The notes beneath the pieces were generated by a model, which saw only the letters and a list, made by a program, of their open reading frames with translations, ran no database searches and was not told the DNA's origin. Shown here in pieces: positions 9,248 to 35,275 of a DNA stretch of 43,418 nt. This DNA comes from Eledone cirrhosa (Eukaryota), in contig CAXHJY010001516.1 in assembly GCA_964016885.1 (NCBI GenBank), forward strand, positions 1-43,418, in the 5' to 3' direction. The position numbers were made by a program, and so were the translations under genes. Position 1 is the first letter of the stretch. Each line of letters begins with the position of its first letter.

Positions 9248-9423
9248 AACGAAGGAAGTGTGGTAAGGAACCAGGTGGACCATAACGCACCAGAGTACTC
9301 AATACTTAGGGTAGTAGAGTGGGTAATAGGAAAATGTTTAACCCCGACGGCAGAGCTCAAGCCGTTTCTAAATAGCCGTCGAAACGGCTTGAGCTCTGCC
9401 GTCGGGGTTAAACATTTTCCTAT
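9248..9423. mobile_element. family A palindromic PLE-like terminus in (TA)n
   Basis: Inverted arms 9326-9368/9381-9423, left arm extended by a tail. Arm reads GAAA-CGGC-loop-GCCG-UC (hammerhead 3' half). Homologues at 16564, 17531, 32451, 33681 and 40125. Confidence 0.7.
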
Positions 9424-9505
9424 ATATATATATATATATAATGTATATATACATCTATCTCTCTATATATATTTATTCATATATAATTATATGTATTTAT
9501 ATATA

Positions 9506-9585
9506 CAGGATATCCCCCCCAAAAAGTATATACACTTTTATAAGAATGCTGTGGAAGTATGTATATATTTTGGGGAGACACCCTG
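9506..9585. mobile_element. 80-bp Tc1/mariner-type MITE remnant
   Basis: TA-CAGGATATCCCCCCCAAAA...TTTTGGGGAGACACCCTG imperfect TIRs. Confidence 0.6.
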
Positions 9586-9868
9586 CATATGTCTATATGC
9601 TTATATATATATATACACATAGATACAAATATACATATTTACATACAGACAAACACGCGCACACACACACACACACACACACACACACACACACACACAC
9701 ACACACACATATATATATATATATATATATATATATATATATATAGGAGGTGAGTTTTATTGTAGTACAATAAAGCAATGCAGATATCGGATAAGAAGCA
9801 CTCTACAGTTTGTAGGACTGGAGTATACATAATATATAAGAACAAAAGATGGTTAAAGGAGTTCCATG

Positions 9869-9939
9869 TATTTTATTATGCGCATTTCAAAAACAAACAT
9901 CATCATGCAATAATATTTGTGTTTTCATCAGATAAAACA
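9869..9939 (-). ncRNA. type I minimal hammerhead ribozyme (mirror copy)
   Basis: Reverse complement of 10038-10108. Confidence 0.8.
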
Positions 9940-10037
9940 GGAAGACATGATATGAAGATTAAAAAACACTTGTGGATAGTGCAGTTTTAAAACTGCACTA
10001 TCCACAAGTGTTTTTTAGCCTTCATATCATGTCCTCC

Positions 10038-10108
10038 TGTTTTATCTGATGAAAACACAAATATTATTGCATGATGATGTTTGTTTTTGAAATGCGCATA
10101 ATAAAATA
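10038..10108 (+). ncRNA. type I minimal hammerhead ribozyme
   Basis: Stem I UGUUUUAU/AUAAAAUA; CUGAUGA at 10046; ~15-bp stem II; GAAA at 10089; palindromic stem III UGCGCA; AUA cleavage triplet. Confidence 0.85.
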
Positions 10109-10176
10109 CATGGAACTCCTTTAACCATCTTTTGTTCTTATATATATATATATATATATATATATATATATATATA

Positions 10177-10290
10177 GTAATAATAATAAATTTGAAGACT
10201 AAAATCCAAAGAGGGCTCGATAAGGATAAATATATATCAAATATATAAGAACCGTAGAGCAAATATTTATTAAAATCTGTTATTTTAATA
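10177..10290 (-). mobile_element. dispersed repeat, probable PLE tail (copy 1)
   Basis: Near-identical to 35173-35275, TA-flanked, carries the GCUC..UC-GAGC hairpin. Confidence 0.55.
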
Positions 10291-10520
10291 TATATATATA
10301 TATATGTATATATACACATACATATATATATATATACCTACATAGATATGTGTGTATAAATATACAAGTATGTTACTCACACCGGTGTCTCGTCCTACTC
10401 CAATTCATGATGGAATGAACCCTCCACACTTCTGCCAAGTGGATAAAGTAGAAAGATGAAGAATGAAAGGGCCGAGCCGATTCCGTACGGCGTGGATGTG
10501 AACCTGTATGTGGGTAGTTC

Positions 10521-10985
10521 TGTAACGAAGGGTATTTGTAATGAGTGTTAGATAGAATAACAAGAATGGCTGATTTACTTTATATATAAAAAGGTTTACC
10601 TCACTTCAGTCAAAAAGAACAATAAATAAATTACCACGAGTTGCGAAGGTTGACAATGTTATTTTGTTGTTGGTTTATGAGGCTGGTATAGTCTGAGACC
10701 AGGAGAGAGAGAGAGAGAGAGAGTAATGGTCTGTGGTTGACTGTAGACCTCAGAGGCCTGTAGTAGGCGGTGAATCTTTACATAGCTTGTCTATAGAGTA
10801 CGGCTCCGACCTCTGTGTGTGTAAAACGTGGGAAAATATAGGCTTTATATACCTGTCGCTTTCTGTCTCCCTGCCTCGAGGCATCGCCCACGCATGAACC
10901 TGTCCACGCCGAAAAGGATGGTGACCTAAAATTTGACTTCCAGGGTATCACCCAAGATTCAAGGCGTGGGGCAGATTTCGCTACA
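10521..10985. mobile_element. solo LTR (465 bp), probably Gypsy-type
   Basis: TGTAACGAA...TTCGCTACA termini; 4-bp TSD GTTC (10517-20, 10986-89); uninterrupted twin of the target at 11020-11088. Confidence 0.85.
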
Positions 10986-11326
10986 GTTCTGGTAGATGTC
11001 CTACCTAGCATGACTAGGGTCCGTACGGCGTGGATGTGAACCTGTATGTGGGTAGTTCTGGTAGATGTTCTACCTAGCACGGCTAGCTAGCTACCCATTC
11101 TTATTCTGTTGATTCATAAAAGAAAAGAAAAAAACAAAATGAAAGCTGAAACATTTGTGTTCGTTCTTTGAAAGCGAGGTAAGATCCGTAATCCACACAC
11201 ACACACACACACACACACACACACACACACACACACACACACACACACACACACACACACACACACACACACACACACACACACACACACATATCGATAT
11301 GTGTGTGTGTGGATATATATATATAC

Positions 11327-11521
11327 GTTATTCCGGGTTGAATCGGAGGTAACCACAGTAAGTAAGGTACTCAATACATTGCAGAGTATAAAAGTTTTAA
11401 TATAGATGAGATTCTACAGGACTAGAACTGTTTCATTCTTTAGAAATCATCAGGAATCTCTGATGATTTCTAAAGAATGAAACTGTTCTAGTCATGTAGA
11501 ATCTCATCTATATTAAAACTA
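11327..11521. mobile_element. palindromic PLE-like insertion with hammerhead
   Basis: Arms ~11393-11452/11460-11520, tail on the left, TA flanks. Confidence 0.7.
11408..11460 (-). ncRNA. type I hammerhead ribozyme (weak stem II)
   Basis: Stem I GAGAUUC/GAAUCUC; CUGAUGA; UUUCUAAAGAAU (U-U at the base of stem II); GAAA; stem III CAG..CUG; GUA triplet. Confidence 0.65.
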
Positions 11522-32218: not shown

Positions 32219-32318
32219 GATATATGACATACCCTGAGATGTTAAATGGTTAAGATTTAATCAAGGTAGTTGATTAAATCTTAACCATTTAACATCTCAG
32301 GGTATGTCATGTATCATC

Positions 32319-32381
32319 ATTATATTTTGTCTGATGAGGACGTACTGTTGTACCTCCGAAATATGTATAATAAAATGTAAT
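32319..32381 (+). ncRNA. type I minimal hammerhead ribozyme
   Basis: 12-bp stem I AUUAUAUUUUGU/AUAAAAUGUAAU; CUGAUGA 32331; stem II GGAcGUAC(uguu)GUACcUCC; GAAA 32358; UAUGUA; AUA triplet. Confidence 0.88.
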
Positions 32382-32450
32382 TGATCAAAAGAACATCTAT
32401 TTTATTAATATTTATATTTTAATATATATATATATATATATATATATATA

Positions 32451-32645
32451 TAGGAACGAGTAGGACCCCGACGGCTGAGCTCAAGCCGTTTCGACGGCTA
32501 ATTCAGTCCAGAATTAGCCGTCGAAACGGCTTGAGCTCAGCCGTTGGGGTCCTACTCGTTCCTATTACCCACTCTACTACCCTAAGTATTGAGTACTCTG
32601 GTGCGTTATGGTCCACCTGGTTCCTTACCACATTTCCTTCGTTAT
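32451..32645. mobile_element. family A palindromic copy
   Basis: Arms ~32451-32504/32511-32565; tail to 32644. Confidence 0.7.
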
Positions 32646-33680
32646 ATATATATGTATATATATATATATATATATATATATATATATATATATATATATA
32701 TATATATATATTAAAGAGTTAAACAAGATTCAATGAGTGCATCAATATATGTGTGTGTGTGTATGTATATATATATATATATATATATATATATACATAC
32801 ACACACACATATATATATATATATGTGTGTGTATGTATACATATATATATATCTATGTATACATACACACATATATATTTATATCTGTATATATATAAAT
32901 ACATATATATATATATATATATATATATATATATATATATATATATATATATGTGTGTGTGTGTGTGTATTTATATATATACACATATATATATATAATA
33001 TATATATATATTTGTATATACATATAATATATATATAACCACACACACACACATATATATATATATATATATATATATATATACATATATAAATATATAT
33101 ATATATATGTATATATATATATATGTATATATATATATATATATATACACATATATAAATATATATATATATATGTCTATCGTTTCATATATATATATGA
33201 AACGATAGACAAGTACTGGGTGTGGCTGAGAGCGAAACGAGTTACGATTTACGGCAGTAATAATACTTAGGTCTAATGACAATATATATATATATATATA
33301 TATATATATATATATATATTTATATATATATATATATATTTATATATATATATATATATATATATATATAAATAAATATATATATATATATATATATATA
33401 TATATATATATATATATATATATATATATATATATATATATATATAAATTAGAATTGGAGTATATATAATGTATTGCAAAATACATTATATATACATCCA
33501 TATATATATATGTATGTATATATATATATATATATTCATATATATATATTTATATATATATATATATATATATATAAATAAATATATATATAAATATATA
33601 TATATATATATATATATATATATATATACATACATATATATATATGTATGTATGTATATGTATATATATATATATATATA

Positions 33681-33835
33681 TAGGAAAAAGAGTCTCAGTT
33701 CCCCGACGGCTGAGCTCCGGCCGTTTCGACAGCTAGATCCGACCCTTTTCCTATTAACCACTCTACTACTCTATGTATTGAGTACTCTGGTGCGTTATGG
33801 TTCACCTGGTTCCCTACCACACTTTCTTTGTTATA
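33681..33835. mobile_element. family A copy (inverted arm + tail)
   Basis: Homologous to 32451-32645. Confidence 0.65.
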
Positions 33836-34559
33836 TATACTCTTTTACTCTTTTACCTGTTTCAGCCATCCGGCTGAGGCCATGCTGGGGCATATATATA
33901 TACATATATATGCATATATATATATATATATATATATATATATATATATATGCATATATATGTATATATATATATATATATATATATATATATGCATATA
34001 TATGTATATATATATATATGCATATATATGTATATATATATATATATATATATATATATATATTTATATATATATGCATGTATGTATATACAGACTCATA
34101 GATAGACTAACATATACTTATACAGTTAAATAGATAGGTAGGTCTACGTATATATACATATGTGTGTGTATGTATATATATATATGCATATATATATATC
34201 TCGAGAGAGAGAGAGAGAGAGATAGAGGTGATAGGTGGAGGTCGATGATGATGATGATGATGATGATGATGTTGAGGAGGAGGTGGGGGGGGGGGGGAAG
34301 GGAGAAGTGGCTAAATATATATGAATATATCGGGTTAAATATGAAAACACCCTTAATGGAGAGAAGGGTCAGCTCTTACAAGCAAATGGGTGCGGCGCTG
34401 TTGTTGTGCTTTTTGAGTGTTTCAACCCGAGCCTGGTCATTAAAAGCCATTCACGGGTAACCCACTGACCGAATTCTCATCTATATTATACACAGAACAA
34501 CGTGTGTGTGTGTGTGTGTGTGTGTGTGTATGGATGAATAAATGTATGGATGCATGTGA

Positions 34560-34760
34560 AAGCGCGTGGCTTTGTCGTTAGAGCGTTGGCCGTACAATAG
34601 TGAAGTTAGTGAGTTCGATGTCCGCAGCAGACGATTTGTTGTGTCCTTGAGCAAGGCACTTTATGTCACGTTGCTTCAATTCACTCAGCTGTAGAAATGA
34701 GTTGCGACGTCACTGCTGCCAAGCTGTATCGGCCATTGGCTTTCCCTTGGACAACATCAT
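34560..34760 (+). mobile_element. degenerate tRNA-derived SINE
   Basis: GTGGCT..GTTAG, GAGTTCGATG, TGTGTCCTTGAGCAAGGCACT core. Confidence 0.7.
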
Positions 34761-34916
34761 AGATAGTATAATCGTGTCTACCACGCCACTCTCAAGAGCG
34801 TGAAACTAATAAACCTTTGTTCGTACTGCCTCTCTGTTTTGTTCCCGTTCAATTTTTTACTATATATATATATTAAAGCATGGCCTCAGCCGGATGGCTG
34901 AAACAGGTAAAAGAGT

Positions 34917-35134
34917 AAAGGAACGATCGACTTTCGTCAAATCGGACCGAGGGAACAATGTTTCCGTTGGTCTTTCCAATTGCTAATGCTATCTATCGGT
35001 CGCAACTCCAGGTAGAAGGAGCAACGTGAAATAAAGTGTCTTGCTCAAGGACATAACGCATCGCCTGGTCCAGGAATCGAACTCACAACCTTACGATTGC
35101 GAATCCAATTCACTAACCACTCAGCCACACGCCT
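34917..35134 (-). mobile_element. tRNA-derived SINE, twin of 17746-17963
   Basis: Reverse-complement match with few differences. Confidence 0.85.
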
Positions 35135-35172
35135 TCATATATATATATATATATATATATATATATATATAT

Positions 35173-35275
35173 AGTATTAATAATAAATGTGAAGACTAAA
35201 ATCCAAAGAGGGCTCGATAAGGATAAATATATATCAAATATATAAGAACCCTAGAGCAAATATTTATTAAAATAA
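35173..35275 (-). mobile_element. dispersed repeat, probable PLE tail (copy 2)
   Basis: Matches 10177-10280. Confidence 0.55.

Follow-up and report, generated by a model that had tools for sequence, protein, structure and literature searches.

What sets the ends of an insertion whose two arms are inverted copies of each other and which carries a tail on one side only? The question is raised by a 43,418-nucleotide (nt) contig of Eledone cirrhosa (CAXHJY010001516.1, assembly GCA_964016885.1; this whole stretch is called the window below), where a reading made from the letters alone had noticed that the tails of palindromic insertions fold into a common hairpin and had ascribed them to Penelope-like elements (PLEs). 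The one-sided tail of PLEs has long been without a sequence-level cause, and in vitro work from 2024 found two start sites of reverse transcription and left the signal unnamed. We find that the hairpin is present twice in the parent elements, which we place in the Hydra clade of PLEs, and that tail-less and tailed copies end just before the first and the second hairpin, respectively. On the sequence evidence, the hairpin is a real, clade-wide cis-acting motif of a known type of element and supplies a simple rule for both insertion ends; the mechanism behind that rule we infer. The doubled hairpin would explain the long-known one-sided tail.

A doubled hairpin and two insertion ends

The hairpin conforms to the consensus RCUC-Y…R-UN-GAGY, often followed by ACU, in which the central CUC/GAG never varies and the two-base bulge is led by U. 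Its setting was defined in two intact Hydra-type elements, H2 (714 amino acids) and H3 (719 amino acids), recovered by peptide-derived pattern and protein searches from the source genome, a 3.0-Gb animal genome rich in microsatellites. Full-length H2 and H3 units read, in order, a pseudo-long terminal repeat (pseudo-LTR) with a hammerhead core, hairpin 1, a spacer of 40-70 nt, hairpin 2, ATG and open reading frame (ORF). Hairpin 1 lies at the end of the pseudo-LTR, ~50-70 nt past the hammerhead core, and hairpin 2 just 5′ of the ATG, ~15-45 nt before it, the two being ~55-85 nt apart.

In these two families, which were picked by protein, 37 of 39 TA-joined 3′ ends lie at one hairpin or the other (H2: 10 before hairpin 1, 9 before hairpin 2, 1 elsewhere; H3: 9, 9 and 1). 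Copies without a tail stop ~2-8 nt short of hairpin 1, and those with a tail ~0-8 nt short of hairpin 2; these offsets are approximate, like those given below for palindrome spacing and for metagenome loci, since alignment ends overrun into the TA tract. The tail therefore consists of hairpin 1 plus the spacer. A natural negative control for hairpin-set ends is provided by a degraded repeat upstream in H2, which has a hammerhead core, a TA run and a broken hairpin; all 28 informative copies run on through it (3 further copies were too short). In the H2/H3 leaders of L163, L167 and L175, hairpin 2 holds an insert of ~65-70 nt in its loop while helix, bulge and ACU are kept, and loop size therefore seems to be free.

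From the two end sites of H2 and H3, a second hairpin was to be expected right after the point where the tails of the window families, designated A to G, end. It was found at that place in families A and B, in 13 of 15 copies of D, 14 of 15 of E and 5 of 8 of G; among six copies of F it was exact in 3 and had one mismatch in 2. Because the search patterns for these families demanded the first four bases of hairpin 2 at a set distance, only its 3′ half, the bulge and the ORF are blind in this comparison. All seven families are traced by sequence to Hydra-clade PLEs. A Hydra-type protein match lies downstream in 25 of 25 fetched continuing copies of family B (of 270 matches), and links to a Hydra-type ORF were found for 15 of 15 fetched copies of E (of 129 matches), 13 of 15 of D (of 328 matches), 5 of 6 of F and 4 of 8 of G, with direct links in 3 of 14 of C. 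The PLE origin proposed in the sequence-only reading is thus borne out for all seven families, and longer copies that run into Hydra-type ORFs place the motif in autonomous elements, as that reading had anticipated; the breadth it implied by speaking of PLE-like families narrows to a single clade.

A metagenome set of 79 Hydra loci, chosen by protein alone, gave the same picture. A covariance model was trained solely on aligned 3′ copies (24 of 45 listed word matches, chosen by position after the hammerhead), and none of its 64 matches in the 79 loci falls inside an ORF. The held-out matches 5′ of ORFs number 38; 14 loci have them in pairs with a spacing of 55-83 nt and 10 have a single one, on the sense strand and before the ATG. 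Ten loci were informative in that a 5′ copy is accompanied by a 3′ copy, and in 6 of them the latter stops 2-6 nt short of a hairpin; outside these ten, 4 loci were cut by contig ends and 1 was a tandem read-through.

The parents share with the Hydra clade of C-terminal endonuclease-bearing (EN+) PLEs, as described in the Hydra section of Craig et al. (2021, PMC8557442), the RWK, DKT and CxCx5C marks, a pseudo-LTR hammerhead, (TA)n targets, inverted 5′-truncated copies and a one-sided tail. In H2 and H3 a single ORF encodes a reverse transcriptase (RT) and a GIY-YIG-like endonuclease, with YRDD and a C-terminal YVGM motif. The N-terminal marks are MRWKA and SDKT in H2 and H3, and RWR/RWT and SDKT in A, B and C; the linker is CxCx5C in H2, H3, A and B, where Cx2-5CxxC is absent. 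Judged by eye from an alignment, the GIY-YIG core lacks a cysteine pair, in keeping with the lack of CCHH in the endonuclease of this clade, and the Hydra-type proteins have no Pfam GIY-YIG match. Pattern searches predict hammerhead core words in H2, H3, B, C, E, G and 39 metagenome ends, and (TA)n is the insertion target across window, survey and H2/H3 copies. The tail is ~55-95 nt here, as against 30-40 bp in the published description, which gives Hydra units as generally short (<3 kb; PMC8557442). Metagenome units measure ~2.3-2.6 kb, and H2 repeats every 4.3 kb because its 3′ region is rich in microsatellites.

Other candidate parents were rejected. Neptune-type PLEs are marked by DKG, Cx2-5CxxC and a Pfam GIY-YIG match, all absent from the motif-bearing families; the Neptune-type controls L081 and L084 have all three and no RW motif, and in the source genome the L084 family has a tail hairpin at a similar place without the motif, and ragged tail ends. 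None of the elements found by a GIY-YIG Pfam search of the source genome (Neptune-type and others) is a parent, and model matches in ten loci from that search lie mostly on separate, nested Hydra fragments. The viral contigs searched yielded no Hydra relative, a search of sequencing runs listed no RNA holder, and the only match in a search of solved structures was a weak one, to a retron RT.

Hairpins and palindromes in the window and the genome

The 11 hairpins listed in the sequence-only reading are all present as quoted, in position and strand. They are given here with the associated arms and one further variant copy:

9297..9320, minus strand: hairpin 1 of family A (Hydra clade); parent with hairpin 2 and ORF in L298, L302 and L305
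9329..9420: inverted, 5′-truncated pseudo-LTR arm pair of family A; the tail lies to the left and (TA)n to the right
9800..9824, minus strand: hairpin 1 of family B, from the sequence read; continuing copies carry a Hydra-type protein match
9839..10138: inverted arms of family B; hammerhead core, read centre-outward, near 10046 (plus strand)
10215..10260, minus strand: hairpin 1 of family D; G-C outer pair, long inner stem, single-arm copy
11369..11387, minus strand: hairpin 1 of family C, whose second hairpin is atypical
11394..11519: inverted arms of family C; hammerhead core near 11460 (plus strand)
11800..12085: inverted arms of family F, from inverted-repeat search and flanks
12094..12118, plus strand: hairpin 1 of family F; first inner pair mismatched in this copy
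12614..12633, minus strand: hairpin 1 of family E; single-arm copy
15336..15354, plus strand: hairpin 1 of a family E relative; single-arm copy
17581..17604, minus strand: variant hairpin 1 of a family A relative, outer pair broken; adjoins inverted arms 17608-17734; missing from the sequence-only reading
32079..32106, minus strand: hairpin 1 of family G, from the sequence read and parent copies
32115..32422: inverted arms of family G, from inverted-repeat search and flanks
32453..32562: inverted arms of family A, from inverted-repeat search and flanks
32571..32594, plus strand: hairpin 1 of family A, from the sequence read and the metagenome model run
33760..33783, plus strand: hairpin 1 of a family A relative; single-arm copy
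35212..35257, minus strand: hairpin 1 of family D; single-arm copy

The earlier statement that nearly every palindrome ends in the motif was too strong, since 6 of 12 local inverted repeats in the window carry a listed motif and 1 a variant (flanks were inspected for 11 of the 12). Likewise, 6 of the 11 listed hairpins are palindrome tails, as had been said of them all, and 5 (10215, 12614, 15336, 33760 and 35212) belong to single-arm copies. Eight of the 11 sites are among the top 10 matches of the metagenome-trained model in the window; those at 9800, 12094 and 32079 were not recovered. An Rfam scan of the window gave no match that names the motif among the best 150 of 285 hits; those 150 are microRNA-like artefacts on microsatellites and palindromes.

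Palindromes were surveyed in the window and in 58 arbitrarily placed 10-kb stretches of the source genome (580 kb), and were picked without reference to the motif, which was scored only afterwards. The survey gave 48 palindromes, of which the 23 flanked by (TA)n at one end and by a tail at the other were scored. The strict motif is present in 10 of these 23 (7 of 19 outside the window) and in none on the antisense strand; 200 dinucleotide shuffles gave a mean of 0.01 and a maximum of 1, far below the observed count. By eye, the 13 motif-negative palindromes comprise 7 with a mutated or variant copy and 6 with none; three of the 25 palindromes outside the scored set show the motif. Strict matches in the 580 kb number 64.

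The fixed distance proposed between the tail-less arm end and the hairpin was also recovered. Among source-genome arms that run into (TA)n, 39 of 46 end 2-7 nt from the hairpin and 33 of 46 at 4-7 nt, with a mode of 5; these are minimum values obtained with a relaxed motif, a few of whose matches are doubtful, and family A is over-represented because it was selected for in sampling. The sequence-only reading was incomplete in that a second copy fixes the tailed end. The central spacer of the palindromes could be assigned in 15 of 58 examined cases (33 had no usable spacer and 10 no match): 9 spacers extend the tail-less arm, 3 the tailed arm and 3 both arms. Two independent starts would account for this distribution better than would a single tailed cDNA folding back on itself; a simple fold-back of that kind would put the spacer on the tailed arm and is disfavoured.

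Several further observations concern these families and their neighbours. The palindrome at 11538-11709 has a tail without the motif; its family (window 11538-11760) is abundant and likewise lacks the motif, its tail-less end being fixed and its tailed ends ragged, and no parent was found. The region 1798-6445 consists of ~90 copies of a 52-nt unit, some of which fold in a motif-like manner on the minus strand. Tandem, non-coding family C units of ~195 nt occur at L370-L373 (G000:C9, near 23.835 Mb); they hold the hammerhead, hairpin 1, the leader and the first codons only, and are candidates for a minimal non-autonomous element. At L303:1500-1620, the TA run behind a family A tail contains a nested fragment of another family, which begins exactly at its own hairpin 1. 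In L193, L251 and L254 a further short motif-like hairpin lies 24-25 nt past the hammerhead core, upstream of hairpin 1; it was seen in one metagenome lineage and is also the last hairpin of the Hydra-1_Amil consensus.

Conservation and covariation of the helix

Hammerhead-bearing ends in the metagenome set numbered 39 after removal of one false core (L183), and 31 had at least 100 nt downstream. The strict motif is present in 14 of these 31, versus 0.1 in shuffles and 2 on the antisense strand; many of the negative ends are tail-less or have short inner stems. A blind register test placed no demand on the inner stem: of 35 cases, a two-base 3′ bulge lets the first inner pair close in 26, 3′ bulges of other sizes in 5-10, and a one-base 5′ bulge in 22.

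The 24-row metagenome alignment contains 26 double changes, compared with 10.9 in shuffles, and the observed value was reached in 0 of 500 shuffles; its first inner pair is C-G in 13 rows, U-A in 9 and other in 2. The source-genome alignment, which was fitted to the model, has 38 double changes versus 11.2, and the outer pair covaries as well, being A-U in 16 and G-C in 10 of 30 distinct rows (37 matches from the unbiased stretches). The covariation claimed earlier thus holds for the outer pair and the inner stem and for these only, because the central CUC/GAG is invariant. That inner stems differ in sequence and keep pairing is likewise supported by covariation, with an exception at 12094, where the first inner pair is a C-A mismatch.

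How the hairpins may set insertion ends

We propose that each hairpin is an RNA docking site at which reverse transcription starts a few bases 5′ of it, a reading to which we give a probability of roughly 65%. The proposal draws on genomic end positions and covariation, and in it the RT would bind the hairpin as RNA. The template would be a read-through transcript of tandem units, bound by the element protein through the invariant CUC/GAG, the U-led two-base bulge and the 3′ ACU. The protein would nick (TA)n DNA, and the freed target 3′ end would anneal to a short U/A-rich run immediately before the bound hairpin and be extended from there. A start at hairpin 1 would yield a tail-less end, and a start at hairpin 2 would copy the spacer and hairpin 1 to yield a tail. 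Two starts, possibly by two subunits on two hairpins, could then give head-to-head palindromes in which only one arm bears a tail.

The closest experimental counterpart is Poseidon. As reported for purified Poseidon PAc protein from Anolis (Frangieh et al. 2024, PMC11167929), two internal RNA start sites bound the tail, the starts need RNA 3′ of them, hammerhead cleavage is dispensable and targets are AT-rich. Poseidon PAc and Hydra share AT-rich targets and, on our reading, two adjacent starts bounding the tail; Poseidon, in contrast, belongs to another clade, and its start sites lie in an AC-rich stem-loop inside the ORF (PMC11167929). By eye, the stem-loop in Fig. S1B of that paper has no RCUC/GAGY helix, and no conserved or doubled binding motif is defined in the portions of the paper available to us. 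With one hairpin 3′ of each Hydra start, the motif is a candidate for the signal behind internal starts of the kind seen in Poseidon. With the letters taken in PDF order, a GAAAG/ACAAC word pair occurs twice in the Poseidon start region (Fig. S1B, PMC11167929), a hint that doubled signals may be general.

Several results weigh against RNA docking. Single hairpins fold weakly and not above shuffles (-3.8 to -12.8 kcal/mol, z 0 to -1.6), and several adopt another fold at minimum energy. Family C ends before an atypical four-pair hairpin with no inner stem, family H1 has a variant with a one-base bulge, and only 3 of 20 pattern matches of family A are true continuations into the ORF. In the same-locus metagenome comparison, 2 of the 10 informative 3′ ends lie near the hammerhead and 2 are only roughly placed. 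On a 19-protein tree, the C-G/U-A swap needs 4-5 changes, of which well-supported branches force only 1. Wobble counts are even (G-U versus A-C: 3 versus 4 and 4 versus 3), and do not tell RNA from DNA, nor one strand from the other.

Rather than docking the RT, the hairpin might guide RNA cutting a few bases upstream, by the element protein or a host nuclease, with reverse transcription then proceeding from an ordinary 3′ end. Some long copies do start just 5′ of a hairpin (hairpin 1 in L172 and L168, hairpin 2 in L171), as would be expected of unit-length RNAs cut at that point, and Poseidon RNA-seq read ends coincide with start sites (PMC11167929). Most 5′ starts are scattered, however, and the Poseidon protein started internally in vitro on templates with varied 3′ ends (PMC11167929), so that we consider this explanation unlikely.

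It is also conceivable, if quite improbable, that the hairpin acts in DNA, as cDNA or cruciform, where the GIY-YIG endonuclease would recognise it, cut the adjoining TA-rich site and resolve a longer intermediate. The almost purely Watson-Crick helix, with no G-U excess, and the target-like TA stretch at each site would suit such a role. PMC11167929 reports that recognition by the Drosophila virilis endonuclease depended on the tail, and Craig et al. credit the tail to endonuclease resolution (PMC8557442). Against this, the one-sided bulge and the ACU flank on the 3′ side only suit a single strand, and the spacer orientation expected from simple fold-back is seen in only 3 of 15 assigned cases. 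Least probable is a role of the hairpins in translation, transcription or hammerhead folding, with nearby ends due to TA microhomology only: hairpin 2 does lie near the ATG and hairpin 1 near the hammerhead core, but leaders and 3′ regions are AT-rich throughout and ends nevertheless cluster at two sites, and the degraded H2 repeat, which keeps its TA run and hammerhead core, is never used.

Structured RNAs held by an RT set the copying register in other systems, among them the telomerase template boundary element, the hepadnavirus epsilon and the R2 3′ UTR (untranslated region). The Hydra signal differs in lying 3′ of the copied part, in being doubled and in that hairpin 1 is copied only from the second start; the likeness is a general one, and the best 150 of the 285 Rfam hits in the window show no match to these RNAs.

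RNA docking invites a bolder version, which we hold only tentatively and think doubtful: a protein dimer would grip both hairpins and prime both nicked target strands at two fixed internal sites, the doubled docking signal would be portable, and doubled start signals of other shapes would lie behind the tail in all PLE clades. If so, any RNA with the ~20-nt hairpin could be copied from a chosen internal base, and tail and head-to-head palindromes would be made in one step.

The motif has been in print. By eye, File S7 of PMC8557442 contains it at the 3′ end of Hydra-2_Amil and Hydra-2_Ajap and at the 5′ start of Hydra-1_Ajap, with variants at both ends of Hydra-1_Crog and in Hydra-1_Amil, while Hydra-1_Obim ends before the tail; the motif-bearing consensus sequences come from coral, sea cucumber and sea louse. 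The Hydra section of that paper does not mention the hairpin, and the word 'hairpin' is absent from its accessible text. The available text of Cervera and de la Pena (2014, PMC4209133) treats hammerheads only, and that of a 2026 octopus repeat annotation (PMC13282606) mentions neither Hydra, hairpin nor tail. We found no description of the motif in the literature searched, which included neither Repbase reports nor papers behind a subscription; its presence in Hydra consensus sequences was printed and went unremarked. The first 220 nt of Naiad_Obim and Naiad_Ovul (supplement of PMC8557442) contain the outer helix words without a closing inner pair, by chance or as distant relatives.

A doubled, covarying hairpin that predicts both ends in many families is a rule for drawing Hydra element boundaries, and the motif helps to recognise short Hydra copies. 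It also offers a candidate RNA handle of minimal size for the mobile elements most closely related to telomerase, which makes it interesting where genes are to be inserted from an RNA template with their 3′ end defined.

The window also holds unrelated elements. Two tandem, near-identical copies of a long interspersed nuclear element, at 20202-25514 and 25916-31228, each with ORF1 and an endonuclease-RT-zinc-finger ORF2, are presumably L1/Tx1-like. TA-flanked terminal inverted repeats without the motif lie at 14866-15101 and 40475-41205, which we take to be miniature elements of the Tc1/mariner type.

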